64,000 nucleotides of DNA, taken from NCBI GenBank assembly GCA_963827235.1, contig CAWHAE010000008.1, positions 192,001 to 256,000 of the forward strand. Direction: 5' to 3'. The stretch comes from an uncultured bacterium (GTDB taxonomy: Bacteria > Chloroflexota > UBA5177 > JANWHV01). This document shows, piece after piece, positions 1 to 15,419 of the stretch. Position 1 is the first letter of the stretch. Every line of letters starts with the position of its first letter. A program made the translations under genes and the position numbers. Under the pieces are notes generated by a model that was not told the DNA's origin, made no database searches, and saw only the letters and a list, made by a program, of their open reading frames with translations.

Positions 1-441
1 ATGCGCAGCCCGGTGAGCGGGCGCACAACCTTCTTGACTCAGCCGCTCGAGCCCGTAGTCTCCGACCAGCACCCAGAGCAGGTTCTTGACCTGGACGTTG
101 CCGCTGTAGTGGAGACCGCTCTGGGCAAGCACGTCGTTGACACGACTGAGGAGATCAGGGTCGTCGCGGAGCGCGCGCCGATCCTGGCCAAGGTTCTGCT
201 GGCACGTGCTGCAGATGTTGACGATGTCCATGCCTGCCGCCTCTGCCATGGCAAAGGTGCGTGCATTGAGCGCGATCTGCAGCTCCGGGTTCTCGTCCCG
301 GATCACCCCGGCGCCGCAGCAGGTGGCGTCGGTCATCTCCCACAGGTCGATACCCAGCACCTTGGCCAGCTTCACAGTGGAGTAATGGAGCTCGGGGCAG
401 GTACCCTTCGCCACGCAGCCTGTGAAATATGCGTACTTCAT
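1..441 (-). CDS. CCG-domain (HdrB/SdhE-like) membrane-anchor subunit of succinate dehydrogenase/fumarate reductase; 3' end runs off the window
   Basis: Manual translation from ATG at 441: MKYAYFTGCVAKGTCPELHYST...EMTDATCCGAG...NARTFAMAE...NICSTC, giving the CX(n)CCG...CXXC motif. ATGA overlap with the sdhB stop. A probable +1 indel near 40 (correcting it restores KKVVRPLTGLR). Absent from the ORF track because it is truncated. Confidence 0.85.
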   Translation of the reverse strand, partial: MKYAYFTGCVAKGTCPELHYSTVKLAKVLGIDLWEMTDATCCGAGVIRDENPELQIALNARTFAMAEAAGMDIVNICSTCQQNLGQDRRALRDDPDLLSRVNDVLAQSGLHYSGNVQVKNLLWVLVGDYGLERLSQEGCAPAHRAAH

Positions 442-1406
442 GGACTACTCTTCCCTTCGTGCCAACGGCATCGAAAATGCGGCGCACTTCGTTTCGGATT
501 GTCGACCTTCTGCAGCATGGGCAGCGGCAGCTTCCCCTTGAGGAGCATCCGCACGCCCTGCGGCGCGTTGCGGATCTGACCAGTGACGTTGGTGATCCCG
601 GTGAGCTCCATAACCAAGCGGGTCTCGTCAAGGCGTCCGCCGCGCCCGATGCTCTTGGTGAACTCCTGACTGTGTCTGGCGCCAATGTTCTTGGTGATCC
701 CTGCCTGAATGGACATGCGGCGCAAGTCCGCAATGGCGCTGGCGGGATCGACGTGCTTCGGGCATTCCATGCAGCTATAGGCGTGTGCACAGTCCCAAAG
801 GCCCAGATCGACCAGCTTCTGGAGACGCTCCTTCCGCTTGCTGTCGCGTGGATCGGTAACGAAGCGATGCGCCTTGGCCAAAGCGGGCGGGCCGGCGAAA
901 TGGCTGTCGACCTCAGTGACGCTACAGTCGGAGTAGCAGACGGCGCACAGAATACAGTTGAGATCCTTGCGCGAGGGCGACAACTGCGCCGGGCTGACTC
1001 GATACTCTGCGTTCGCGGCCGGCACCTTGGCCGGATCGGGCTGTAGCCAGGGCTCGACGTCTCGAAAGTGCTTCCAGAACGGGGCCATGTCCACGACCAG
1101 GTCCTTGATCACCTTCATGGTGCGCATAGGGGTGATGCGCAGCTCGGTGCGGCCCCGCTTAAGCTCGGCCGCGATTGGCGTCTTGCAGACGAGCTTGGTG
1201 TACCCGTTCACCACCATGGCGCAGGATCCGCAGATTGAGTGCCGGCAAGCCCGCCGATACGCCAGCGAGTCATCGTGGTGGTCCTTGATCGTGTTCAGCC
1301 CGTCCAGGATCGTGGCTTCATCCCACAGGTCCAGCTCGTACCGCTCGAAGTGGGGCGCATCGTCTTTTCCGGGAACATACCGCTGGATCAGGAAAGTCGA
1401 CTTCAT
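438..1406 (-). CDS. sdhB: succinate dehydrogenase/fumarate reductase iron-sulfur subunit
   Basis: CRHSICGSC...C (2Fe-2S), CILCAVCYSDC and CAHAYSCMECP cluster motifs. TAATG coupling to sdhA. The last ~20 residues may be affected by indels near 455-495. Confidence 0.93.
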   Translation of the reverse strand: MKSTFLIQRYVPGKDDAPHFERYELDLWDEATILDGLNTIKDHHDDSLAYRRACRHSICGSCAMVVNGYTKLVCKTPIAAELKRGRTELRITPMRTMKVIKDLVVDMAPFWKHFRDVEPWLQPDPAKVPAANAEYRVSPAQLSPSRKDLNCILCAVCYSDCSVTEVDSHFAGPPALAKAHRFVTDPRDSKRKERLQKLVDLGLWDCAHAYSCMECPKHVDPASAIADLRRMSIQAGITKNIGARHSQEFTKSIGRGGRLDETRLVMELTGITNVTGQIRNAPQGVRMLLKGKLPLPMLQKVDNPKRSAPHFRCRWHEGKSSP

Positions 1407-3088
1407 TAGTACACCCTCTCCATTGGCTGGAACTTGCCCATGGTGACCGGCGCGTAGCTGATTTGCGGCCCTTCGGGCGAGTAGGTTGCGACCGTATGCT
1501 TGAGCCAGTTCGCGTCGTCGCGATCCTTGTAGTCGGTCCTCGCGTGGGCGCCGCTGCTTTCGGTGCGCGCCAGAGCCCCGGCAGCAATGACCTCGGCAAG
1601 GTCGAGCATCGCTCCCAGCTCCAGCGCTTCGCAGAGTGCGGTATTAAGACCAGCGACGTGTCGGCGATGGTCACTGAGGCGTACCGGTCGCGCAAAGTGC
1701 GGATCTTCCTCAGCCCCTCTGCCATCTGGTCTTGGTACCTGAAGATATGGAAGTGCTCATTCATGGTAGCCTGCATGGCGTCTCGTAGGTCAGCTACCTT
1801 CTCGGTGCCTTGTCCGCTGAAGAGCTCGTCGCGACGCTCCTCCTGCACTCGCACGGCGTCGTCCGGGAAGCTCGAGTAGTCGTGTTCTTTCGCGTGCTTG
1901 GCGGCGCTCGCGCCCGGCGATCTTGCCGAACACCACCGTCTCCAGCAGCGAGTTGCCTCCCAGGCGGTTCGCGCCGTGCACGCTGACGGCCGCGCACTCT
2001 CCCGCGGCGAAGAGGCCCTGTACCGAGGAAGCACAGCGCGTGTCGACGCGAATGCCTCCCATGGTATAGTGAGCGCCCGGGCGGATAGGCACGGGCCCAT
2101 CGACCGGATCGACGCCGGCGAAGTCGGTTGCCAGCTCGCGAATCTGCGGTAGTCGCTCCTGGATTCTGGCCTCGCCAAGGTGTCTCAGGTCGAGAAGAAC
2201 ACAGCCGTTCACGCCGCGGCCTTCCAGTATCTCAGTCCACTCGGCGCGAGACACGACGTCGCGGCTGGCCAGCTCACCCTTCGAGGGAGCGTACTTGAAC
2301 ATGAATCGCTCGCCGTCGGCGTTGAGCAGGTACGCGCCTTCTCCACGCGCGCCTTCTGTGATCAGCACGCCGTTCGCCGCCAGGGTAGTCGGATGGAACT
2401 GTATGAATTCCATGTCCTCTACGGGAACTCCGGCCCTGTAGGCGATTGCTACGCCGTCGCCTGTGCTGATCAGCGAGTTCGTGCTCTTGAAGAACACACG
2501 TCCCGCCCCCCCGGCCGCGAACACGACGGACTTGGCTCGAAAAGCGATGAGCTTACCCGTGGTGATATCCAGGGCCACCACTCCCTTGCACACTCCGTCT
2601 TCCACGATCAGCGAGGTGACGAAGAACTCCTCGTAGACTGTCGCACCGTTCTTGAGCACCTGCTCGTACACGGTCTGGAGAATGACGTGTCCGGTAATGT
2701 CGGCAACAAAGCAGGTTCGTGGGAATCCGGCGCCGCCGAACGGCCGCGTTGCGATGCGCCCGTCCTGCCACCGGCTGAACAGGACACCTTGATGCTCGAG
2801 CTCGTAGATACTCTCGGGCGCGAGACGAGTGAGTATCTCCGCGGCATCCTGATCGGCCAGGTAGTCACTACCCTTCACCGTGTCAAACCAATGGTTCTCC
2901 CAGTTGTCGTCTTTGGCGACGGCCGCATTGATACCGCCTTGAGCGGCGCCTGAGTGGCTGCGCATCGGGTGGACCTTCGAGAGGACTGCCGTGTCCGCCC
3001 CGGCTTCGCGAGCGGCAACCGCGGCACGCATGCCTGCCAAACCGGCGCCGACCACGAGAACCTCATGTTGGATCACAGTGTCGCCCAT
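1406..3088 (-). CDS. sdhA: succinate dehydrogenase/fumarate reductase flavoprotein subunit (two compensating apparent indels at ~1914 and ~1646)
   Basis: GAGLAG, RSHSGAAQGG (FAD-His), QFHPT, EGARGEG, ELASRDVVSR, HYTMGG, HGANRLGGNSL and the C-terminal RTESSGAHAR...WLKHT. These are spread over three ORF-track frames. RBS CAGGAGG precedes ATG 3088. Confidence 0.93.
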
Positions 3089-3614
3089 GTCGTGGCTGAC
3101 CTCCTGGCTGCAAATGACGCCGTCCTGGCGTCCGATACACATGTCGGTACCACAGTCCAGCCTGGCACGCGCGCCGGATGTGGATCGCGGTGGGTCTGCT
3201 TTGGTGTAGGCTCTTGGCGTCCCGGCGTCAAGTGCGCGTTCGCGGCCGCGCTTCCCTTGGACGCTTCGCCTCTATTTCAGTGTAGGCCGCCGCTGGAAAC
3301 CGCGCTGGTGCGACACAGCAGCGGTCCGTGCGAATTGCGCGACAGAGTGCTTCGGCCCGGCAATCCTGGGTGCCGCGGACGCCTCCGCACGTGCAGGGCA
3401 TAGCCTGCATGGTTCTGAGATAACACACAGCAGCGTTTGAGCGTAGGCGTGTTCCCAGACACGCGTTGCCCGCGCATCCGCTCACCGGTGATGCAAGCCG
3501 GCGCTTGGATGGGCGGGCAGCGATCTGACTCCACGCTCGCGGCAAGCCTATCCCACGGGCTGCTGCCGCTGCGGTAGCCCGGGCACGGTCGTCGAGAGTG
3601 CCCGGGGCGTGATC

Positions 3615-4952
3615 CTACTCATATCGAAGTGCTTGAATCGGGTCCAGGGCCGCCGCTCGGCTGGCGGGATAGCTGCCAAAGAAAAGACCGATGGCCAGCG
3701 AGACTCCAAAGGCAAGAGCCACGGAGTTCGAGCTGATCACCGGTGTCGCGCTGCCGAAGAATCCGGACAGAACTTTCACATCCGAGAGAAGCCACGCGAC
3801 CAGGAAGCTCATGCCGACGCCGATGGCACCACCCGTCGCACTGATCATTATCGACTCGGTCAGAAACTGCATGAGGATATCGATCTTGCGGGCCCCGACG
3901 GCCTTGCGAAGCCCGATCTCGCGGGTTCGCTCCGTCACGGTGACCAACATGATGTTCATGATCCCTATGCCCGCGACCAGGAGTGCACAGGCGGAGACAC
4001 CGGCCAACAGGGTCGTCAGCGTACCGGAGACACTGGAGGCCGTCTGCTGCACAGTCGTCTGGCTAAAGAACGAGAAGTCGTCGGACGCCGAGTACGTCAA
4101 GCGATGCAGGCTCCGCAGCATGCTCTCGACCTCCGCCTCGGCCAGATTGGTGGTACTCTGTTTCGTCGCCTCGATGTTGATCGACGAGAGCGATCCGGTG
4201 CTGCCCGAGGAGTGCGGCAAGATGGTCTGAGCCGTGGTCAGCGGGACGTACACCACGTTGTCCTGGTTGACGCCGCCGCTTCCGCCCTTGGACGCCATTA
4301 CACCCACGATCTCGAAGGTTATGCCGTTGAGTTGCACCGACGAACCCACGGTAGCGGAAGCAGACTCGTTGGGAAACAACGTGCTCAACAGCGTGGCGCC
4401 GATGCATACCACCTGGGATCGACTCACGAGATCGCTGCTGGTAACGAACCGGCCAATGGCAACCTGGGCGTTGCGAACGGTCTCGTACTCAGGCGTAACG
4501 CCGTCGACGGACGTGTACGTGTTTTCGCTGCCTGCCACGATCTGAGCGTTCGTGTCGAACTCGGGGGCAACCAATGCCACGTCCGGCAGGCTGCCCGAGG
4601 AGCCGGCGTTGTCGGCCAACGTCTGCGCATCCGACAGCTTCAGCGTACTCGACGATCCCATGGCGCCGCGGACACCTCCTGAGAACGTAGAGCCGGCCTG
4701 CACCTCCACGAGATTTGTGCCAAGCGAGCTGAGCTGAGAGTTAACCTGGCTCGCCGAGCCGTTGCCGATGCCGACGGCTACGATGACCGAGGCCACGCCG
4801 ATGATCATGCCCAATAGCGTAAGGGCCGTGCGCGCCTTGTTCGTGAGAATCCCCGTCACGGCGACGTTCATCGTCGTGAGGACCTGTGCTAGCACCGCGA
4901 TGGGAGGACGTCCGGACGCCTGCTCTGCCGGATGTAAGGCTTGTGTTGCCAT
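3615..4952 (-). CDS. MacB/FtsX-family ABC transporter permease (no fused ATPase domain)
   Basis: NKARTALTLLGMIIGVASVI...LGTNLV, a large extracytoplasmic domain, GIGIMNIMLVTVTERTREIGLRKAVGA and GLFFGSYPASRAAALDPIQALRYE. The likely start is ATG 4952, immediately after the adaptor stop. Confidence 0.93.
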   Translation of the reverse strand: MATQALHPAEQASGRPPIAVLAQVLTTMNVAVTGILTNKARTALTLLGMIIGVASVIVAVGIGNGSASQVNSQLSSLGTNLVEVQAGSTFSGGVRGAMGSSSTLKLSDAQTLADNAGSSGSLPDVALVAPEFDTNAQIVAGSENTYTSVDGVTPEYETVRNAQVAIGRFVTSSDLVSRSQVVCIGATLLSTLFPNESASATVGSSVQLNGITFEIVGVMASKGGSGGVNQDNVVYVPLTTAQTILPHSSGSTGSLSSINIEATKQSTTNLAEAEVESMLRSLHRLTYSASDDFSFFSQTTVQQTASSVSGTLTTLLAGVSACALLVAGIGIMNIMLVTVTERTREIGLRKAVGARKIDILMQFLTESIMISATGGAIGVGMSFLVAWLLSDVKVLSGFFGSATPVISSNSVALAFGVSLAIGLFFGSYPASRAAALDPIQALRYE

Positions 4953-4953
4953 G

Positions 4954-7900
4954 TTATCTACCCGGTCCTCCGCCCATACCGCCCATGCCACCCATGCCCC
5001 CCATACCGCCAATGCCGCCTGAGCTGCTCGACGCACTGGTGGTGCCGGAGGTCGTGGGCACGATGATCCTCTCGTTTTCCTGCAGACCGCTCAGGACCTG
5101 CGTGTAGCTCGTGTCGCTTGTGCCCGTCTGGACCTGCACTTGCGATATCTGGTTCGTGGCGCTCAGAGTTTCCACGAAGCTGCCCGCCGCGTTGGTAGTG
5201 ACGGCCTGCGTGGGTACTTCCAGCACATTGCTGACCTGGGCGGTGACTATCGTCAGATCGGCGGTCATGCCCGCTGTTATGCCCTTCGTGCTGCCGGATA
5301 GCTTGATCTTCACGGGATAGGTCGTCACATTGGATGAGGTGGTCGCCGCGTAGGGTATGCTGCTGACCAGGCCGACGTACGTCGTGGATGGATAGGCGCT
5401 GAAAACCAGTGCTACCGGGTCGCCGATCTGGATACTGGCTATCTCGGCTTCGGGGATGTCAGCTGTCACGTCTATGCCCTGCGTGGTCAGCATCGTGATC
5501 GCCGCGGTGCTGGAGCCGGCGGCCTCGCCATTCACGATGCTGACGGACTCGACCGTACCGTCGCTGGGCGCGTAGATCTTCGTTTCGCTCTCGGCCAGAG
5601 CCTGATCGACCTTCAGCGTCTGCTTCGCCTGGGCGAGACTTGCCTTCAGGATGGCAAGCTCGGTTGCCGTGTAGGGATGGATGACCAGGTCGAGCGCAGC
5701 CTGTGCGCTCTTGACTGCCTCCTCCTGCTGCGCGATATCGTTGGAGGAATTCGGCTGCTTCGCCAGGTCGAGAGCGATCTGAGCGTTGACCACGGAGTCC
5801 TGCGCCTGCTGGATATCGGTCGTGCTTCCGGGGTGCTCGGCGAGAGCCAACGCCTGCTCTTCGGCTACCACGTTGTCACGGGCCTGCTGGATGTCGGTTG
5901 TACTGTTAGGCTGCTTTGCAGCTGCAAGAGCGGACTCAGCGCTGGCAACGGTCAGCTTCTGTTGGGCGATGTCGACCGCCGAGTTCGGCTGCTTTGCCGC
6001 GACCAGCGCAGCCTGAGCGCTCGATACTGCATCCTCTGCCTGGCGAATATCCTGAGCGGAGTATGGTTGCTTCGTTGAAGTCAGTGCTGCCTGCGCGCTC
6101 TTGACCGCCGCCTCCTGCGAGACGATGTCGGTCGCGGAATTGGGTTGCTCGACGGCGACTAGTGCGGCTTTCGCGCTCTGTACTGCCGCTTCCTCCGACG
6201 CGATGTCGGCGGCTGAGTTGGGCTGCTCGGCAGCTGCCAGGGCCGCTTTCGCGCTCTGTACTGCCGCTTCCTCCGACGCGATGTCGGCGGCTGAGTTGGG
6301 CTGCTCGGCAGCTGCCAGGGCCGCTTTCGCGCTCTGTACTGCCGCTTCCTGCGACGCGATGTCGGCAGCGGAGTTGGGTTGCTCGGCCGCGGCCAGACTC
6401 TCCTGGGCGCTCTTGACCGAGTCTGCCTGCGAAGCGATATCGGTCTGCGAGTTGGGCTGTTCCGCCGCCGCGAGCACGGTATTGGCGTTGTTGACCGTGA
6501 CTTCCTGCGAGGCAATCTGAGCCGCCGTGTATGGATGCTCGGCAGCAGTAAGTGCCTCCTGTGCGCTCGTGACCGCCGCCTCCTGGGAGGCGATATCGGT
6601 TGCGGAGTTGGGCTGCTTGGCCGCGACAAGCGCGGCCTCGGCGCTTCGAACGGCGATCTCCTGGGAGGCAATGTCGGATGCCGAGTTTGGCTGTATTGCC
6701 GCGGCCAGCGCCACCTGGGCGCTCTTCACGGTTGCCTCCTGTGAGGCAATGTCCTGCGTTGTATAGGGGTGCTCGGCCGAGTACAGGGATGCCTCAGCCG
6801 TCGCGATGGCATCTTTTGCGGAGGCCAGGTCCGTGGCACTGGCGGGCGCGGTAGCTGTGGTGAGCGCCGCTTCGGCCGATTTCACCGAGTCCTCGGCGGA
6901 TGCGAGAATCGGTTGAGCTAGCCGGCGCCAGCGCCGCGTCTAGCGACGCCTGGGCCGAGATGATGGAATCCTGTGCGGACGCAAGATCCGTGGCAGTGGC
7001 CGAGCCACTCTGAGCCGTGTCGAGCGAGTTCTGAGCCTGAATCACGGCGTCCTGGGCCTTGGCCAGGTCGGTGGAAGTCGGCGAGGGCGACTGGTCCGCG
7101 TTCAGCTTCGCTTGCGCGGCAGCGACCTGCTGCTGAGCGAGAGTTACGGCATTCGCTTCGGGACTATTCAGAGCGGCGAGGGCAGCGGTGGCGCTTGCCA
7201 CACTGGCGTTGTCGTTGGCGATGTTGGCCTCATCGGTGGCCAGATTCTCAAGGTAGGTCGCTTCTTCGCTCGATAGGGTGGTGGAGCTGGTGGTGCTGGA
7301 AGCCACGGGCGCCGTAAGCAGCGAGAGCGCTACCTGGTCTGTCTGCAGCTTGTTCTGAGCGGATAGCAATGTGGCCTTGGCTTGGGCGACAGATGACGCA
7401 GTCGGGTTGGACAGGCTATTGAGTGAGTTCTGAGCCGACGTTAGGCTGGCCTGGTCGGAGTCCAGGGTGGCCGCCGTCGCCGGTGAGTAGAGAGCGGCCA
7501 GGCTCTGCTTTGCGCTGTCGAGGCTTGCCTTTGCCGAGGCGATCGTGGCAGCACTGGAAGGTGCTTGCAAGGCAATCAGCTTCTGTTTGGCGGAGTCAAG
7601 GCTGGCCCGTAGCTGTGCAAGCGTCGTCGCCGATGGAGCCGCCTTGAGGGCGATGAGCTTCTGCTTGGCGGAGTCGAGGCTGGTCTCGGCCTGCGCCACG
7701 GTCTGGGCGCTTGGTGGCGCCTGCAGGGCCTTGAGCTTTTGAATCGCCGAGTCCAGACTGGCCTTCGCCGCGACGAGCGTATTTGCATCCGGAGGCGACT
7801 GCATTTCGTTGAGCTTGATCTGGGCCTGCTGCATTGTGGCCTTGGCCTGAGCGATGGAGCTTGCCGTGCCACCCGTCTTCATAGCAGCGAGCTTAATCTG

Positions 7901-9247
7901 GGCCTGCTCGAGAGAGGCTTTGGCCTGAGCAATGCTGCTCGGCGTGCCGCCGGCCTTCATGGCTGCCAGCTTGATCTGGGCTTGCTTGAGTGTGATCTGG
8001 GCCTGCGCTATGCTCGTGGCAGTTCCGCCTGCCCTCATCGAGGCCAGCGTGATCTCGGCCTGCTGCAATGTGGCCTTAGCCTGAGCGATGCTGGAAGCGG
8101 TGCCGCCGGCCTTCATGGCAGCCAGCTTCAGCTCTGCCTGCTCGAGGCTCAGCTTGGCCTGGGCGATGCTGGAAGCGGTGCCGCCGGCCTTCATGGCAGC
8201 CAGCTTCAGCTCTGCCTGCTCGAGGCTCAGCTTGGCCTGGGCGATGCTGGAAGCGGTGCCGCCGGCCTTCATGGCAGCCAGCTTCAGCTCTGCCTGCTCG
8301 AGGCTCAGCTTGGCCTGGGCGATGCTGGAAGCGGTGCCGCCGGCCTTCATGGCAGCCAGCTTCAGCTCTGCCTGCTCGAGGCTCAGCTTGGCCTGGGTGA
8401 TGCTGGAGGCCGTGCCGCCCTTCTTCATGGCAGCCAGCTTCAGCTGAGCCTGCAGAAGCGAGGCTTTCGCCTGGGCGACGCTCGCGGCCGTGCCGCCTGC
8501 TTTTTCGGTCGCAAGCTTTGACTTGGCCTCGTCGAGAGCTTGCTGCGCCTGCGCAATGCTGGCCGCGGTCCCACCGGCCTCCATCGAAGCGAGCTTGGCC
8601 TGCGCGGCGGCAAGCGTGTTGGCGGCCTGGGCAATCGACGACGCGGTGCCGCCCTGCTCGAGCGCTGCCAGTTTCTGCTGTGCGGTATCGAGATTCAGCT
8701 GGGCCGTCTCGATGGAGGAAGCGGTGCCGTTTTGCAAAGCGGCCAGCTTCGATTTCGCCGAGTCGAGGCTGGCCACCGCTTCGGCGATGCTCGCCGCGGT
8801 CCCGCCCGCCTTCAACGCAGCAAGCTTGAGCTGTGCCTGCCGCAAGCTTGACTGCGCCTGCGTCAGCGAGTCAGGGTTGACGGGTGCGAGCTCCTTGTCC
8901 AGGTTGAGCTGGGCAGTGGTGACGGCATTCTGGTCACTCATCAGTGACAGCGAGAGCGACTGATCGCTGAGCGTAGCCAGTACCTGGTTCTTCTTCACCT
9001 TCTGCCCGGCGGTCGCGAGCACGCTTGCCACGGTGCCCGACGCCCCGAAAGTGAGCGAGTAAGAGGTGACATCCTCTGATGTTCCCGAGGGCGTTATGGA
9101 GGACGTGATCGTGCCGCGGGAGACCAGCATGACCCGTCCATCGATGCGCTGTGGCGTGCTGATTCCCGGTAGCGAGAAAGCGGCGGTCACACTGCCGCTG
9201 GTGACGAGAGCCGCGAGAAGAGCGAATCGAGCCGTGGTTCCTTTCAT
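4954..9247 (-). CDS. giant MacA/HlyD-family membrane-fusion (adaptor) protein, ~1430 aa, split by one apparent +1 indel at ~6907
   Basis: N-terminal hydrophobic anchor and first lipoyl half-motif (FGASGTVASVLATAGQKVKKNQVLATL). About 40 26-aa helical repeats follow, then the second lipoyl half (IYAPSDGTVESV), beta-barrel and membrane-proximal domains (IPEAEIASIQIGD, GMTADLTI, LEVPTQAV, VLSGLQENERI). Deleting one base of minus-strand GATTCTC restores the repeat unit TDLASAEDSVKSAEAAL. RBS GGAGG. Confidence 0.9.
6167..6395 (-). repeat. 78-bp tandem repeat, ~3 near-identical copies (PNSAADIASEEAAVQSAKAALAAAEQ)
   Basis: gctttcgcgctctgtactgccgcttcct... recurs at 6167, 6245 and 6323. Confidence 0.95.
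8085..8402 (-). repeat. 78-bp tandem repeat, ~4 near-identical copies (GGTASSIAQAKLSLEQAELKLAAMKA)
   Basis: ctggaagcggtgccgccggccttcatggcagcc... recurs at 8091, 8169, 8247 and 8325. Confidence 0.95.
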
Positions 9248-9706: not shown

Positions 9707-10903
9707 CTAGTCCGTACTGGTCAGGTAGCCGCTGGAGGTGCTGGAGCTCGTTGCGGATTGCAAAGCTGCGAGCAGAGCCTTCAGAAGGTCCTGGCTGGAC
9801 GAGCTGGACGAACTGGACGAGCTGGTGGAACTCGCCGCATTGGTGGCGCTGGCAGCATCGGACTGCGTGGAACTACTGTCGCTCGCGCCGGTACCGGCCG
9901 GCGGCGGAGGCGGCGGCAGGTTGCCGTTGCCGGCAACGCTGGAAAGAGCGGCCGCGAGCTCCTTGAGGAGGTCGTCTCCGGTCGTGGTCGAGGACGAGGA
10001 CGTGCTCGAGTCGGACGAGCTGGATGACGAGCTCGTGCCGCTCGCGGCGGTCTCGAGCGCAGTGGCCAGCTCCTTGAGCAGACTCTGGCTCTGATCAGTG
10101 CTGCTGCTCGTCGTGCTGGAGTCGGTTGTACTGGTCGACGAGCTGGTGCCGCTCGCCGACGTGGACGTGCTGTCCGAAGATGTGGCCGACTCCAGGGCGG
10201 AAGCGAGTGCGCTCAGCAGCTTCTGACCCCGTTCCACGCTCGCCGAATCAGACGACGAGCCGGAGCTCGTGTCGCCGGTCGCGTTTTCCAGCGCTGCGGC
10301 GAGGTCCTTCAGCATGCCACCGCCGGGAGGCGGCGGCGGGGCGCCGGTCTGCGCAGTCACTGCGGTAGAGCTGCCGCTACTGCTCGTGCTGTCGGTACCG
10401 GAGTCGCCGGTGATGCTCTGCAGGGCGCTGGCAAGGGCCTTTAGCAGATCCTGGCCCGTGAGCGTCGAAGACGAGCTGGATGTGGCGTCAGTACTGGTGG
10501 TGGCGTCGGCGCTGGTCGTGCCATCACTGCTCGTCGTCGAGCTGGTGCCGGCGGTAGAATCGCTGCTCTGACCGATCGCCGACTGCAACGCCTGGGACAA
10601 CGCCTGCAAGAGGTCCTGCCCCTGGAATCCCTGGCCGGACTGGTAGCCGGGCGGCGGCCCATAGGTGTTGCCGTCGTAGGTGATGCCGTTCGTGCTGCTA
10701 GTGGAACCCGACGTGGATGACGTATCGTACGAGCTTTCCAGGTTCTGCAGGGCGTCGTCGGACAGCTCGAGACTGTAGCTTGACTCGCTGGAGGAAGTAG
10801 TGGAGCTGGAGCCAGTTGCCTGGCTGAGGGCTTGTTCGAGAAGCTTTTCGAGACGGCTCGATTCACTGGACGATCCGGTACCGCCGATCGACGAGATACT
10901 CAT
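9707..10903 (-). CDS. Ser/Thr-rich low-complexity protein with 8 amphipathic LLKALASAL-type repeats (harpin-like composition), 398 aa
   Basis: RBS AAAGGAG 8 nt before ATG 10903 (MSISSIGGTG...). Repeats include GQDLLQALSQALQS, GQDLLKALASALQS, GQKLLSALASALES and SQDLLKALLAALQS. Poly-Pro tracts are present. No Cys/Trp and no signal peptide. Confidence 0.85.
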   Translation of the reverse strand: MSISSIGGTGSSSESSRLEKLLEQALSQATGSSSTTSSSESSYSLELSDDALQNLESSYDTSSTSGSTSSTNGITYDGNTYGPPPGYQSGQGFQGQDLLQALSQALQSAIGQSSDSTAGTSSTTSSDGTTSADATTSTDATSSSSSTLTGQDLLKALASALQSITGDSGTDSTSSSGSSTAVTAQTGAPPPPPGGGMLKDLAAALENATGDTSSGSSSDSASVERGQKLLSALASALESATSSDSTSTSASGTSSSTSTTDSSTTSSSTDQSQSLLKELATALETAASGTSSSSSSSDSSTSSSSTTTGDDLLKELAAALSSVAGNGNLPPPPPPAGTGASDSSSTQSDAASATNAASSTSSSSSSSSSSQDLLKALLAALQSATSSSTSSGYLTSTD

Positions 10904-11024
10904 TCGGCTCACTCCTTTTCGGCTCGGCTCGTGTCAGATGCGATATATACTTCAGGTCGACCTCTGCATCTAGTGTCGTCACGAATACCCGCATTTTCAG
11001 AGCGATAAAGGGCCGAAATTGAGG

Positions 11025-11489: not shown

Positions 11490-14400
11490 ATGGACGCCAA
11501 TCTTCGTCATTGCACGGCTCATCGCGTTGCCCGTCGTGTCCGTGGGTGGCCGCCAGTCATCGTGGCAGTGCTGGTTGCCAGTATCGTGATCGTTCCCTCG
11601 TGGAACGCAGGGCTCATTCAGGCGGCCTCTAGCAGCCAATCATCTGCCGTACTGCGTGCATCGAATGCAGCCGGCGGCGACACAGTGGCCCGATCGCGTG
11701 TTCTCGACGACGTCACCGCGACCACCGTGCCGACATCCACGTTCGTCCCCACGTCGACCACTGGTCCGACCACCGTCCCGACGTCCACATCCGTCCCCAC
11801 GTCGACCGCTGCCCCGACCACCGTCCCGACGTCCACGTCCGTTCCCACCTCGACGCCGGTGCCTTCGTCCACGTCGACCCACACGGTCGTGCCGACCTCC
11901 ACCGATACTGCGATCCCAACCTCGTCTGATACCGCGACGCAGACTTTCACGGCGACGTCGACGAACACCGCGATAGCCACGGCCACGTCGACGGTCGGAG
12001 GCCTGACACTGAGTCCGTCGTCGGGCGCCAGCGGCGCCAGCGTCTACATCTATGGGAGCGGGTTTTCGTCAAGCGAGGAAGTTTCCATCTATGTCGCCGG
12101 GACATATGACACGTATGTGTACGCCAGCAGCGGCGCGGTGAGCACATACATCTCGTTCCCCTCGACTACAATTACAGGTTACGTGGTCGTCGAGCTGCTC
12201 GGGGCCTCGAGCGGGCACGAGGACACCGGGGAATTCGATGTCACAAGCACCTCGAGTACCACACTCACGTTGTCTCCGACCTCCGGCTCAGCCGGTACCA
12301 CGGTGACGGCCTACGGTAGCGGATTCACGGCAGGGGAGACCGTCGAGGTCATGGCCAACGGCTCGGAGGTGGAAACCACGGCGACCTCGAGCAGCTCAGT
12401 CACCGTCTCCTTCACCTTTCCTTCGACCTCGAGCACCGGCTATAAGACGGTTGAGCTGTACGGACTCACCAGCGGGCATGTCGCCACTGCCTCCTTCTAT
12501 GTCTCCAGCACGTCGAGCACCACGCTCACGCTGTCGCCGACCTACGGAACCACCGGCAGTACCGTCACGGCGTACGGCACCGGATTTACGTACGGCGAGC
12601 TGGTCGAGCTGATGGCCAACGGCTCGTACGTCACAGAACAGACGGCCACGAGTACTGCGGTCACCATATCGTTCAGCTATCCCTCGACATCCAGCACGGG
12701 TTACCAGACAGTTGAAATGTACGGCCTCAGCAGCGGGCACACGGCTACCGCGTCGTTCGACGTGACAAGCACGTCGAGCAGCACGCTCACCTTGTCGCCT
12801 ACCTCGGGAAGTGCCGGCACGACGGTGACCGCCTACGGCACAGGGTTCACCTACGGCGAGTCGATCGAGCTGATGGCGAACGGCACGGAGGTAGAGGAAG
12901 TCACGGCGAGCAGCACTGCCGTCACCGTCTCGTTCAGCTACCCCTCGACGTCCAGCACTGGCTATCAAACGGTGGAGCTCTACGGTCTGAGCAGTGGGCA
13001 CACGGCGAGTGGTTCCTTCTACGTCTCGAGCACCTCGAGCAGCACGCTCACCCTGTCACCCACTTCCGGGACCACTGGTACCACAGTCACCGCCTATGGC
13101 ACCGGATTCACCTATGGCGAGTCGGTCGAGGTGCTGGCGAACGGCACCGAGATAGAGGTCGTGACGGCTACAAGCACGGCTGTGACGATCTCCTTCAGCT
13201 ACCCCTCTACGTCCGCCACGGGATATCAGACAGTAGAGCTCTACGGCCTGTCCAGCGGGCATACGGCGTCGGCCTCGTTCTACGTCACCGCTACGTCGAC
13301 CTCGAGCTTCACGTTGAGCCCGACCAGTGGCAAGCCGGGAGCGACGGTGTCGGCGACCGGCTATGAAACCACGTTCAGTCTTTATGGCGCTCAGACCGTC
13401 ACGATCAGCTTCGGCGGCACACAGGTCGCCACCGTGACGCCCGGCACCGCGGGCTACTTCAGCGTGTCCTTCACGGTCCCGAGCGGATTCAGCGGTACGG
13501 TGACGGTCACGGCCACCGCCGCGGCCTACGGCTATTCTGCCTCCCAGACCTTCTCGGTCGTCAAGCCAACGCTGACACTTGGTAGCAGCTCTGCGGTGCC
13601 CGGTACCCTGGTCTCGCTCAGTGGTACTGGATACACGCCGGGCGAGACTGTGACGATCACTCTGCCCGGGGGCGGCACCACCACTGCCACTGCCGGTAGC
13701 TCGGGCGCGCTGAGCACCTCGGTGACCATCCCGGCCGGTCTGTCCGCGGGTAGCGCCACGATCAGCGCGATAGGATCGAGCAGCCAGATCACGGTGAGCG
13801 CCACGCTGACCATAACCGGCGCCAGCCTGAGCGCAAGACCGGCCAGCGTCTCTGCAGGGAGCCAGGTCACGTTCAGCGGGAGCGGTTTTGCTCCCGGCGA
13901 AGTGGTGCAGCTCAGCGATTCGACAGGCGATAGCCAGAGCGTGGTGGCCGACAACCAGGGCGGCATGAGCGTAACGATTACGGTTCCTGCCACCCAGGTC
14001 ACGGGGTCGGCCGCGTTCACGGCACGAGGCCTGACGAGCAAATCGTCGGCATCGGCCACGGTCTTCGTGGCTGCGGTTGCCGTTCGTGCTGCTACCCCGA
14101 CCAGCACGCCGAGGCCGACCGTGCAGGTCTCGCCTACGGTGGCTGCTCCGAGCGCAAACACCGGTAGCTCCACCTGGTACTTCGCGGCCGGTCGCACGGA
14201 CAAGGGCTACAGCGAGCAGGTCGACGTGCTCAATCCCAATCATAGCTTGGTTCGCGGCACCATCACCCTGTACTACGGGAGCGGGAAGAGTACTTCCACC
14301 TCATTCAGCCTGGGAGCACTGGAACGCGGGACGTACGATGTGGGCAGCATTGTCGGCATGCAGCGCGGCATTGCAATTGTGATCAAAGCCGGCATGCCGG

Positions 14401-15419
14401 TGGCAGCGACGGTCACCGGCGAGCACGGCACAACCAACAAGACCGTGCTGAGCGGTGTCTCGGCGACGGCAGACAAGTGGTACTTTGCCGACGGCTATAC
14501 CACCAAGGCGTTCGTGGAAACCCTGGACGTGTTCAACCCAGGATCCACCTCCGCGTCCGTGCGGGTGACGTGGCCTCGGACCGGCGGCAAGTCCGTGCAG
14601 ACGACATTCACAGTGGCAGCGCATAGCGTGCGGTCGGTGTCCGTAAACAAGTATGTGCCAGGCACGTCGCATGCCATGATCGTGAGCTCCAATCACGCTG
14701 TGGTCGTGGCTCGCGAGACGGTATTCGGGTCCAAGAGCCAGGGGACTATGGTTACTCAGGGTACGTCACGTGCCGCGACCAAGCTCTACCTGGCCGAGGG
14801 CTCCACGACCGGTGGTGTCCAGGAATCGGTGACCGTGCTTGACCCCGGCAGCAAGAGCGCGCATGTTACGCTGACGTTCTATGCAAGTAGCGGCAAGTCC
14901 ATCGCCAAGCGCACGCTGACGGTCGGCAGCGTGCAGCGGCAGAGCATCGACGTCAACAGCATCACGAACTCGGCCTCGGTGGCGGCCGTTGTCAGCAGTG
15001 ACGTGCCGGTAGTGGCCGAGCGAATCATCTTCACCGGCAGCCCCAACGGAAGCTCCGCTGGCGGCACAGACGTGCTGGCGAGTGCGATCGCTGCCAGCGG
15101 CTGGGCCTTCGCCTCCGGTGACACGAGCGCCGGCAACAAGGAGTTCATCACTCTGCTCAACCCGGTGGGCAAGGCCGCGACGATCGTGGCCACCTGGTAC
15201 TCGAGCAGTGGCGAGCTCGTTCAGAGGCAGTTCACCCTGCCGGCCAACGCACGGATCACGATTGACGTCTCGCGCTCGGCGGGCACACTGCCGGCCGGAA
15301 GTCATGCCACGGTCCTGCGATCGCTGGCCGGTTCGCCGTTCGTCGTCGAACAGTCGCTCTATGATGGCGCGATGAAGCAGTGCGGCACGACGTCGGGCAC
15401 GTCGCTCGTCGGATCGTAA
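11490..15419 (+). CDS. large secreted/surface protein: signal anchor, Thr/Pro linker, tandem Ig-like (IPT/TIG-like) repeats, C-terminal WYFAxG-repeat region (DUF5719-like)
   Basis: RBS GGAGGAGGAG and a hydrophobic N-terminus. 87-aa repeats LTLSPTSGxxGTTVTAYGxGF. C-terminal repeats WYFAAGRT, WYFADGYT, LYLAEGST and WAFASGDT. Confidence 0.88.
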   Translation: MDANLRHCTAHRVARRVRGWPPVIVAVLVASIVIVPSWNAGLIQAASSSQSSAVLRASNAAGGDTVARSRVLDDVTATTVPTSTFVPTSTTGPTTVPTSTSVPTSTAAPTTVPTSTSVPTSTPVPSSTSTHTVVPTSTDTAIPTSSDTATQTFTATSTNTAIATATSTVGGLTLSPSSGASGASVYIYGSGFSSSEEVSIYVAGTYDTYVYASSGAVSTYISFPSTTITGYVVVELLGASSGHEDTGEFDVTSTSSTTLTLSPTSGSAGTTVTAYGSGFTAGETVEVMANGSEVETTATSSSSVTVSFTFPSTSSTGYKTVELYGLTSGHVATASFYVSSTSSTTLTLSPTYGTTGSTVTAYGTGFTYGELVELMANGSYVTEQTATSTAVTISFSYPSTSSTGYQTVEMYGLSSGHTATASFDVTSTSSSTLTLSPTSGSAGTTVTAYGTGFTYGESIELMANGTEVEEVTASSTAVTVSFSYPSTSSTGYQTVELYGLSSGHTASGSFYVSSTSSSTLTLSPTSGTTGTTVTAYGTGFTYGESVEVLANGTEIEVVTATSTAVTISFSYPSTSATGYQTVELYGLSSGHTASASFYVTATSTSSFTLSPTSGKPGATVSATGYETTFSLYGAQTVTISFGGTQVATVTPGTAGYFSVSFTVPSGFSGTVTVTATAAAYGYSASQTFSVVKPTLTLGSSSAVPGTLVSLSGTGYTPGETVTITLPGGGTTTATAGSSGALSTSVTIPAGLSAGSATISAIGSSSQITVSATLTITGASLSARPASVSAGSQVTFSGSGFAPGEVVQLSDSTGDSQSVVADNQGGMSVTITVPATQVTGSAAFTARGLTSKSSASATVFVAAVAVRAATPTSTPRPTVQVSPTVAAPSANTGSSTWYFAAGRTDKGYSEQVDVLNPNHSLVRGTITLYYGSGKSTSTSFSLGALERGTYDVGSIVGMQRGIAIVIKAGMPVAATVTGEHGTTNKTVLSGVSATADKWYFADGYTTKAFVETLDVFNPGSTSASVRVTWPRTGGKSVQTTFTVAAHSVRSVSVNKYVPGTSHAMIVSSNHAVVVARETVFGSKSQGTMVTQGTSRAATKLYLAEGSTTGGVQESVTVLDPGSKSAHVTLTFYASSGKSIAKRTLTVGSVQRQSIDVNSITNSASVAAVVSSDVPVVAERIIFTGSPNGSSAGGTDVLASAIAASGWAFASGDTSAGNKEFITLLNPVGKAATIVATWYSSSGELVQRQFTLPANARITIDVSRSAGTLPAGSHATVLRSLAGSPFVVEQSLYDGAMKQCGTTSGTSLVGS
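11721..11870 (+). repeat. 48-bp tandem repeat encoding TTVPTSTSVPTSTxxP (3 copies)
   Basis: accaccgt... at 11721, 11769 and 11817. Confidence 0.85.
12003..13310 (+). repeat. 261-bp (87-aa) intragenic domain repeats, 5 copies
   Basis: LTLSP-coding starts at ~12003, 12264, 12525, 12786 and 13047. Confidence 0.9.

Follow-up and report, generated by a model that had tools for sequence, protein, structure and literature searches.

A putative MacB-type export adaptor in an uncultured Chloroflexota bacterium, with a predicted hairpin built of tandem 26-residue modules

Introduction

MacA, the membrane fusion protein (MFP) or adaptor known from Escherichia coli and A. actinomycetemcomitans, is built from an anchor, a split lipoyl domain, a β-barrel, and a membrane-proximal domain, with a helical hairpin inserted in the lipoyl domain. 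It pairs with a MacB-type permease and docks on TolC. Extended coiled-coil hairpins are also present in the adaptors EmrA of Aquifex aeolicus and HlyD of E. coli, and the coiled coil of EmrA measures 127 Å (PMC4158417). The length of adaptor hairpins is thought to match the distance to TolC across a periplasm whose width is fixed. In bacteria that have no outer membrane, large hairpins have been called hard to rationalise (PMC4446572). The gene described here, which encodes a putative adaptor of this kind, lies in a stretch of 64,000 nucleotides from an uncultured bacterium of the Chloroflexota (GenBank assembly GCA_963827235.1, contig CAWHAE010000008.1, positions 192,001–256,000). The whole stretch is called the window below.

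The gene occupies positions 4954–9247 of the minus strand. It has a reading frame of ~1430 codons of the MacA/HlyD type once an extra base at position 6907 is skipped. The encoded protein is predicted to share the domain order of MacA and an extended hairpin with EmrA and HlyD, and its gene adjoins one for a MacB-type permease. The best explanation as a whole, to which a probability of roughly 0.6 is given, is that this is one MFP gene of a MacB-type ATP-binding cassette (ABC) exporter and that its hairpin has been lengthened by tandem 26-residue modules.

Results

Identity of the Gene

In the assembly, the gene is represented by a pair of open reading frames (ORFs) on the minus strand, 6794–9247 (817 aa) and 4954–6885 (643 aa), which overlap by ~90 nt in different frames. 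Reading through the break with an X gives a product of 1431 residues, three to four times the size of a normal adaptor. The C-terminal ORF contains the β-barrel that marks the HlyD-MacA family, identified through the Pfam families HlyD_D23 (E 5.8e-11, 42.5 bits, cut-off 30) and HlyD_3 (E 2.9e-9, 38.1 bits, cut-off 22.2). The N-terminal ORF matched zero Pfam families at E ≤ 0.01. It is 69% identical to an intact paralogue in the same genome, and Biotin_lipoyl_2 was found in that paralogue at E 4.6e-8. Split lipoyl halves flanking the hairpin, as in the HlyD-MacA family, are supported for the window protein by this homology and by a model of the paralogue. The membrane-proximal domain was assigned by homology to relatives in the class, which are 41–44% identical to the window protein. 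Judged by eye from the translation, the N-terminus is hydrophobic and is followed by β-strand sequence typical of an MFP. The neighboring permease contains MacB_PCD (E 1.1e-42) and FtsX (E 1.2e-19).

Repeat Anatomy

A strict 26-residue register runs from residue 122 to about residue 1213 of the read-through product. At a lag of 26 residues, identity is 0.56 in the first arm (arm A) and 0.48 in the second (arm B), and it is at most 0.21 at any lag other than the multiples of 26. The period is exactly 26; a 52-residue super-period was not found in the lag analysis. Tandem Repeats Finder (TRF) detected 78-bp arrays at 6090–6625 and 7812–8497. Counted by hand in this register, the gene has 20 units, a Ser/Thr-rich loop, and another 20 units, which agrees with the original prediction of about 20 units of 26 residues on each side of a Ser/Thr turn. 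Arms of opposite charge, Lys-rich in A and Asp/Glu-rich in B, had also been proposed. The net charges are +19 for arm A (residues 122–639) and −40 for arm B (residues 695–1216).

The composition of the units was taken from six related genes, which together supplied 96 units of arm A and 92 of arm B. Positions 7, 14, and 21 hold large hydrophobic residues in 99–100% of the units of arm A and in 100% of those of arm B. Position 17 is Ala in 96% of the units in each arm. Position 10 is Ala in 90% of A units and Gln (51%) or Ala (42%) in B units, and position 24 is Met or Leu in arm A (95% large) and Ala in 82% of arm B. Positions 1–6 form a capped break, of the Gly-Gly-Thr type in arm A and of the Pro-Asn-Ser/Thr type in arm B. 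Lys occurs at positions 11, 20, and 25 of arm A; arm B has Asp at position 6 and Glu or Asp at positions 11, 12, and 25. The mean charge per unit is +0.94 for A and −1.55 for B.

Each unit consists of three heptads with the a/d pattern of a coiled coil and small d residues, plus a five-residue linker that contains Gly or Pro. In an Alacoil, a kind of antiparallel coiled coil, the a positions are occupied by large residues and the d positions by Ala or other small ones. Units of both arms have this Alacoil-like combination of large a and small d residues. Since the A and B units align position by position, they are one 26-residue motif in two charge variants. Of the earlier proposal of two unit types, the charge difference holds, but the two do not represent distinct motifs.

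The Frame Break at 6907

The frame switches at 6905–6910. The 26-residue register continues there from one ORF to the other, and the DNA is one base too long, as expected from the indel that had been suspected at about 6907. In a public freshwater sediment metagenome (run X1, Logan contigs), a 151-nt contig of depth 2 equals 6864–7015, with the absence of base 6907 as its sole difference. Two other runs, X2 and X3, covered only 6924–6965 at low likeness and were uninformative on this base. The core gene sdhA, in the same contig as the MFP gene, changes frame twice inside 1300–2300, from frame 1 to 2 and back to 1, and the adjacent sdhB is intact. Because the X1 contig lacks the base and sdhA also switches frame, the break at 6907 is very probably an assembly error. 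The two switches in a core gene point to indel errors in the assembly, and other split genes of the window are therefore suspect.

Both pieces of the MFP gene are otherwise open (817 and 643 codons) and retain the repeat pattern. Programmed frameshifting was considered and rejected, since no slippery motif was seen by eye and the X1 contig does not have the extra base. A true frameshift confirmed by reads, which would have spoken against a full-length protein, was not encountered; the frame is intact in the X1 contig at its depth of 2.

Relatives and Operons

The host genome comprises 8.0 Mb in 21 contigs, with 95.9% completeness and 9% contamination. The class of the host was represented by 21 genomes in total in the genome search. 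The intact paralogue in the host has 1469 aa, and its operon contains genes for the MFP, an ABC ATPase, a MacB permease, and a Gly-rich membrane protein. Orthologous operons were identified in two genomes of the same genus, G001 (MFP of 1598 aa) and G002 (1362 aa), and in two further genomes of the same class, G008 (921 aa) and G013 (935 aa). In all of the orthologous operons, the permease gene is followed by a fourth gene for a membrane-anchored, Gly-rich protein of 312–413 aa with no Pfam family. A match to DUF1090 in the paralogue (E 6.9e-14) was read as coiled-coil likeness and not as homology.

SdhB and ribosomal protein S7 are each single-copy in the host genome, and the two giant MFP genes are thus most likely true paralogues. 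The closest named proteins to SdhB, 80–87% identical, are from metagenome-assembled genomes labelled 'Chloroflexota bacterium'. On the same grounds, a bin of two related genomes was rejected for now as the source of both copies; contamination is nevertheless 9%.

An ABC ATPase gene stands alone on another contig of the host, C16. Its product is 70% identical to the ATPase of the paralogous operon and is likely to be a trans-encoded partner of the window MFP and permease. Between the two systems, the identity is 63% for the C-terminal ORF of the MFP and 71% for the permease. Given this similar divergence of the three proteins, the comparison fits a second working system that would be split over two loci. 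The C16 ATPase gene follows a gene for a 735-aa repeat protein, which resembles a 579-aa protein encoded upstream of the paralogous MFP.

Balance and Matched Expansion of the Arms

The number of A and B units was determined by three methods in the six genes of this lineage (Table 1). The hand counts are equal in six of six, so that the co-variation of the two arms that was anticipated for homologues is present. In the generic counts, the tip was placed at the largest gap. The value of 21 for arm A of the window gene arises because the helix before the hairpin was scored too. With the type-specific models, all A-type calls are N-terminal and all B-type calls are C-terminal in the six genes, apart from one weak B-type call each in G013 and G002 at the first position, before the hairpin. 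In the genes with a located Ser/Thr loop, the arm lengths are 479/490, 291/294, 558/570, and 551/576 residues. A crude count was also made in 96 complete distant homologues. Of these, 38 have equal counts in the two arms and 42 show a difference of 1 (80/96 by 1 or less). Unmatched counts, the outcome that would have argued against a hairpin, were thus absent from the hand counts of the six genes and did not prevail among the distant homologues.

Table 1. Units in arms A and B of the six genes, by three counting methods (HMM, hidden Markov model).
Gene	Hand count, A/B	Generic unit HMM, A/B	Type-specific HMMs, A/B
G008	10/10	10/10	8/10
G013	10/10	9/9	8/10
G002	17/17	16/16	16/17
Window gene	20/20	21/20	20/19
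Paralogue	20/20	20/20	21/18
G001	23/23	23/23	22/22

Among the members of the genus, basal and tip-proximal units are conserved one-to-one, and all change in length falls in one homogeneous run per arm. These expandable runs face each other. They comprise A6–A14 and B7–B14 or B15 in the paralogue and the window gene, A6–A17 and B7–B17 in G001, and A6–A11 and B7–B12 in G002. The newest copies in the window gene are A7–A10, with 96–100% DNA identity between successive units, and B8–B10, with 90–96%, and both sets lie at the same height from the base. Since solely balanced states were seen, it appears that selection keeps the arms equal. A solenoid within each arm is disfavored, since such folding offers no reason for arm balance.

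Structure Models

Two models were made with AlphaFold2. Model 1, of the 921-aa relative with an alignment of 60 sequences, has a mean predicted local distance difference test score (pLDDT) of 71.9 and a predicted template modeling score (pTM) of 0.39. Its arms consist of helices of ~22 residues split by breaks of 3–5 residues. The best fold matches are the MacA-MexA chimera (4dk1_B, Z 16.8) and MacA (5nik_D, Z 16.7), aligned over residues 35..884. The globular parts also match BesA, EmrA, and Spr0693 (5xu0_B, Z 14.8), in ranges that span both ends, and HlyD is matched at Z 11.4–11.7.

Model 2 covers the whole hairpin of the paralogue (residues 95–1290, 33 sequences), with a mean pLDDT of 66.9 and a pTM of 0.32. 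Both of its arms are helical throughout, as in Model 1. The base is confident. Its two ends taken together (range 1..1196) match biotinyl/lipoyl domains at Z 8–10 and the lipoyl domain plus hairpin base of MFPs at Z 12–14, and the base aligns with EmrA over 219 residues (Z 12.2). The tip (residues 529–660) matches the two-helix hairpins of FliJ, YscO, and colicin-type proteins at Z 9–9.6.

The models thus suggest an antiparallel helical hairpin inserted in the lipoyl domain, although the mid-arm of the giant protein is not confidently modeled. Folding of the repeats as a solenoid, which had been named as the result that would contradict a hairpin, was not obtained. The ends of the insert meet as in MacA, MexA, and EmrA, and the tip is a two-helix hairpin. 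The antiparallel A-B hairpin of the original prediction is therefore supported by the base, the tip, and the alignment of the relative with 10 + 10 units to PrgA, although confidence in the mid-arm is low (pLDDT 35–60). There, A-B pairing is suggested by the unit counts rather than by a modeled structure.

Envelope and Outer-Membrane Partner

Omp85 was not found in the host genome, which is 95.9% complete, and the Pfam family OEP was found over its cut-off in 0 of 20 relatives. R-x3-L-x6-S is the motif at the adaptor tip that binds the TolC/OEP partner. It was found in 0 of 6 adaptors, the window protein included. This tip motif has been called 'RLS' (PMC4446572). An outer-membrane partner, as in a classical tripartite pump, was not found for the window adaptor, and the host appears to be without an outer membrane. 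In view of the results for Omp85, OEP, and the tip motif, docking of the hairpin on a TolC-like channel is unlikely. Adaptor hairpins are said to resemble inverted TolC helices. In G008 and G013, OEP matches below the threshold (E 4e-4 to 8e-4) fall within the adaptor hairpins and were attributed to coiled-coil likeness and not to homology. In other Chloroflexota, cryo-tomography has revealed multilayer envelopes with an extra amorphous layer of ~30–50 nm (PMC7332563).

Size Within the Wider Family

A HMMER scan of 1.84 billion representatives gave 26,836 matches at E ≤ 0.001. Among the best 150 of these 26,836, the longest has 1045 aa (P0005, which looks like two complete adaptors in tandem) and the rest have at most 839 aa. 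A word-based search of 5.8 billion proteins in the band of 807–2571 aa, with the paralogue as the query, drew on 7998 candidates. There were 51 among the matches listed, the best of which has 851 aa and 33% identity. In the 50 proteins from this search that had not already been counted, the most units found was 16 in total. The window gene and the paralogue have 40 units each and G001 has 46, which is 2.5 to 3 times the maximum found elsewhere. In the wider group of extended HlyD-family adaptors, 382 of 550 unit-to-unit steps have a length of 26. In three proteins (P0164, P0167, and P0169, 1534–1559 aa), an MMPL-type transporter is naturally fused to an adaptor bearing the same 26-residue units.

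A search for longer proteins with the C-terminal domain found none among 7977 candidates, which is weak evidence. A metagenome scan with the C-terminal 258 aa, in which the Gly/Met pattern dominated, gave one unrelated match at 31% identity among the matches listed. Adaptors of this size or with 26-residue modules were undescribed in the literature searches, whose scope did not extend to subscription journals or supplements and included the available part of PMC8277102.

Other Features of the Window

The features of the MFP gene and the other loci mentioned are collected in Table 2. Upstream of the MFP gene is an unrelated Ser/Thr-rich ORF, and succinate dehydrogenase genes lie beyond the permease gene. 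The upstream ORF encodes 401 aa on the same strand and has no Pfam family. It contains about nine copies of the helix-like sequence D-L-L-K-A-L-x-x-A-L-x-S between low-complexity stretches, and a counterpart was not seen at the paralogous locus. Further away, a secreted-looking protein of 1309 aa has many tandem modules of ~90 aa (T-L-S-P-T-S-G … V-T-A-Y-G-T-G-F-T), and its C-terminal region weakly matches ASRT, the family of the Anabaena sensory rhodopsin transducer, at E 1.4e-6. The Gly/Met tail of the window MFP parallels Gly/Phe or Gly/Arg tails in relatives. This C-terminal tail is conserved in relatives and disordered, and it was modeled at pLDDT below 50.

Table 2. Coordinates of the features discussed. 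Positions without a locus name are those of the window.
Feature	Position	Strand	Basis
Whole MFP gene	4954..9247	-	ORFs; junction; intact 1469-aa paralogue; 1598-, 1362-, 921-, and 935-aa orthologues
Putative N-terminal hydrophobic anchor or signal, aa 1–32, with conserved L-P-G-I-S-T-P end	9152..9247	-	Translation
N-terminal β-strands, first lipoyl half, and pre-hairpin helix, aa 33–121 (predicted)	8885..9151	-	Paralogue homology and model
Arm A: 20 units x 26 aa (two of 25), Lys-rich, net +19	7331..8884	-	Repeat register; charge count
Units A7–A10 from base, recent expansion	8108..8419	-	DNA identity 96–100%; TRF array 7812–8497
Tip: two longer helices around Ser/Thr-rich loop (predicted)	7166..7330	-	Register; paralogue model
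Arm B: 20 units x 26 aa (two steps of 27), Asp/Glu-rich, net −40, holds the frame break	5599..7165	-	
One extra base, ORF split, probably assembly error	6907	-	Register; X1 contig; sdhA
Units B10–B8 from base, recent expansion	6145..6378	-	DNA identity 90–96%; TRF array 6094–6396
Second lipoyl half, β-barrel, predicted membrane-proximal domain	5032..5598	-	HlyD_D23; HlyD_3; model of 921-aa relative
Gly/Met-rich C-terminal tail, 9-bp DNA repeat	4957..5031	-	Translation; TRF
MacB-type permease, ATG one base past MFP stop	3615..4952	-	Pfam; 71% identity to paralogous permease
sdhA	1300..3142	-	
401-aa Ser/Thr-rich ORF just upstream of MFP	9707..10912	-	
1309-aa secreted-looking protein	11490..15419	+	
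Lone ABC ATPase, after 735-aa repeat protein, on host contig C16	L107 3398..6851	+	70% identity to ATPase of paralogous operon
RND (resistance-nodulation-division) operon on host contig C15: OEP, 380-aa MFP, AcrB in at least two pieces	L108 88..6112	+	
Fourth genes of the operons	L088 3359..4462	-	
	L100 10874..12115	+	
	L101 9235..10260	+	
	L102 8896..9954	+	
	L103 2039..2977	-	
Sub-threshold OEP (TolC repeat) matches	G008:C2:597646..597939		
	G013:C1:2185076..2185357		

Discussion

The repeat anatomy and the matched arms suggest how the protein may be built. Each A helix would pack antiparallel on a B helix, module against module, and the a/d layers would pair one large with one small residue. 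The product would be a segmented two-helix rod with an outgoing Lys-rich arm and a returning Asp/Glu-rich arm. By analogy to MacA and Spr0693, six copies may form a tube of 12 helices in which Lys-rich and acidic helices alternate and every contact between neighbors is of the A-B kind. Linkers after every three heptads could relieve supercoiling, so that a straight tube can reach far. Such a tube may take a substrate on from the MacB permease and lead it across a thick, multilayer envelope without help from a TolC partner, and its length would shift by gain or loss of units in the homogeneous run of each arm. Among known relatives, the exported substrates are antimicrobial peptides, lipids, or glycolipids. 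A rod of collinear modules would have an upper bound of ~80–86 nm; the value near 86 nm follows from arms of 558–570 residues at the 1.55 Å per residue of PrgA. By the same PrgA scaling, the 10-unit forms would reach ~46 nm and the 23-unit form ~100 nm.

Alternatively, the Gly/Pro linkers may be sites where the helices turn back, giving a compact bundle or a zig-zag, similar to CusB, that would be far shorter than 80 nm. Equal arm counts would still be expected if both arms contribute helices to each layer. The linkers of 3–5 residues with Gly-Gly or Pro every 26 residues would allow this, and the low confidence of the mid-arm in the giant's model is in keeping with it. In addition, the hairpin of CusB folds back on itself into a four-helix bundle (PMC4446572). 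However, the model of the relative with 10 + 10 units aligns with the straight stalk of PrgA over 447 residues of its range 152–652 (Z 10.2, which is within the range common for long helices, and rmsd 63.9 Å). The base and the tip of the paralogue model match simple two-helix hairpins. Each helix has a single a/d hydrophobic stripe, outside of which solely position 19 of arm A is partly hydrophobic (40%), and the period is exactly 26 with no super-period of 52 residues. Folding back is thus considered unlikely.

It is similarly improbable that the long hairpin pairs as proposed, yet forms no closed hexameric conduit. The rod would then be a spacer, fence, or anchor in the outer layers of the envelope, and transport would end at the membrane-proximal ring. 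PrgA shows that a two-helix stalk of 385 Å can act as a spacer (10.1101/2020.06.18.156562), and very large adaptor hairpins in Gram-positive bacteria are hard to explain by the bridging of channels (PMC4446572). Against this, MacA and Spr0693 were solved as hexameric tubes (PMC5768738), and the alternation of Lys-rich and acidic helices would fit a 12-helix ring in which each neighboring pair is A-B.

That the window copy is a decaying duplicate with a real frameshift, an ATPase lost from its locus, and no full-length protein would agree with the extra base in the assembly, with an MFP-permease interval that has no ATPase, unlike the paralogous operon and the four orthologous loci, and with the intact frame being seen in one contig of depth 2, but it is very improbable given pieces that are open for 817 and 643 codons with no further break, a register and a/d pattern that are preserved throughout, two frame switches within 1 kb of sdhA that point to assembly errors, and an ATPase of matching divergence elsewhere in the genome (70%, compared to 63% for the C-terminal ORF of the MFP and 71% for the permease).

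Several observations weigh against the explanation of the gene as part of an exporter with a hairpin lengthened by modules. At the window locus, an ATPase gene was found neither between the MFP and permease genes nor elsewhere, and the fourth gene of the paralogous operon is missing. The X1 contig, with its depth of 2, is possibly from the assembly's own source sample and is modest evidence. The assembly contains one OEP over the cut-off, in an RND operon at the start of the 153-kb contig C15. Since no relative has an OEP over the cut-off, this locus was either acquired horizontally or belongs to a foreign contig in the bin. The type-specific counts in Table 1 are noisier than the others. In the wider family, the arm counts correlate at only r = 0.40, and by the crude method the two arms are at least 2 units apart in 16 of 96 proteins. 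Copies that are 96–100% identical mean that the repeat counts of the assembly may be wrong. As to the models, the mid-arm blocks of Model 2 have a pLDDT of 35–60, and the alignment to PrgA has the large rmsd and the common Z given above. The pLDDT profile of Model 1 has mirror symmetry about residue 400 at r 0.77, but a plain shift scored higher at r 0.82. The symmetry does not discriminate and was dropped as evidence of pairing.

A more far-reaching form of the exporter explanation is put forward tentatively, with the odds against it. In this genus of apparently monoderm Chloroflexota, the hairpin would be a stand-alone export tube of ~65–100 nm, with ~4 nm per unit pair, that is tuned by the coupled gain and loss of units at matching heights of the two arms and serves as a ruler for the thickness of a multilayer envelope. 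Under such a ruler, envelope thickness in these lineages could be read from the 10, 17, 20, and 23 units per arm. The supercoil would be reset at the linkers, and the 12-helix barrel would remain straight over about twice the length of the longest solved bacterial two-helix coiled coil.

Because one family naturally spans 10, 17, 20, and 23 unit pairs, the control of hairpin length becomes testable against envelope thickness. Two tandem arrays of a single gene that have to change together also offer a clean setting for work on coupled repeat evolution. For the design of long helical tubes, the three-heptad module with its linker may be of interest as well.

Comparison With Known Adaptors

MacA is the best match to relatives of the window adaptor both by sequence in the PDB (4dk0, E 4.1e-19, with the relative P0004 as the query) and by fold. 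The PDB chains of MacA have 341–371 residues, whereas the window protein has ~1430, with arms of ~540 residues each in 26-residue modules. In contrast to MacA, which docks on TolC, the window adaptor does not have the R-x3-L-x6-S motif, and OEP is present in 0 of 20 relatives. Known adaptors lengthen by the insertion of heptads (PMC4446572), whereas the window adaptor appears to have lengthened by a punctuated 26-residue module, repeated 20 times per arm. The same 26-residue unit and architecture are found in database entries for extended HlyD-family adaptors of 450–920 aa from Chloroflexota and other bacteria, which are named as HlyD family or RND adaptors. These have 2–9 units per arm, with a maximum of 16 in total among 50 proteins.

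PrgA of Enterococcus faecalis also projects a long antiparallel two-helix coiled coil from the surface of a monoderm cell. It is unrelated to the window protein in sequence and in function, which is surface exclusion, and it has a CAP domain at its tip. Its helices are continuous with one Pro kink (10.1101/2020.06.18.156562), and the arms of the window protein are about twice as long. The PrgA stalk of 385 Å was, according to its authors, the longest bacterial two-helix coiled coil in the PDB in 2020 (10.1101/2020.06.18.156562). If the rod of the window protein is extended, it would be about twice as long as this stalk.

MacA-like adaptors of MacB-like ABC pumps are also present in cells that have no outer membrane, namely Spr0693 of Streptococcus pneumoniae and YknX of Bacillus subtilis. 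Spr0693 forms a hexameric nanotube, which has been proposed to conduct the substrate away from the membrane (PMC5768738). Its helical barrel is 56 Å high in an assembly of ~154 Å (PMC5768738), whereas the hairpin of the window protein is predicted to reach up to ~800 Å and to be segmented. The window protein is most like these monoderm MacA-like adaptors, with a predicted hairpin that is an order of magnitude longer and that follows a principle of punctuated modules.

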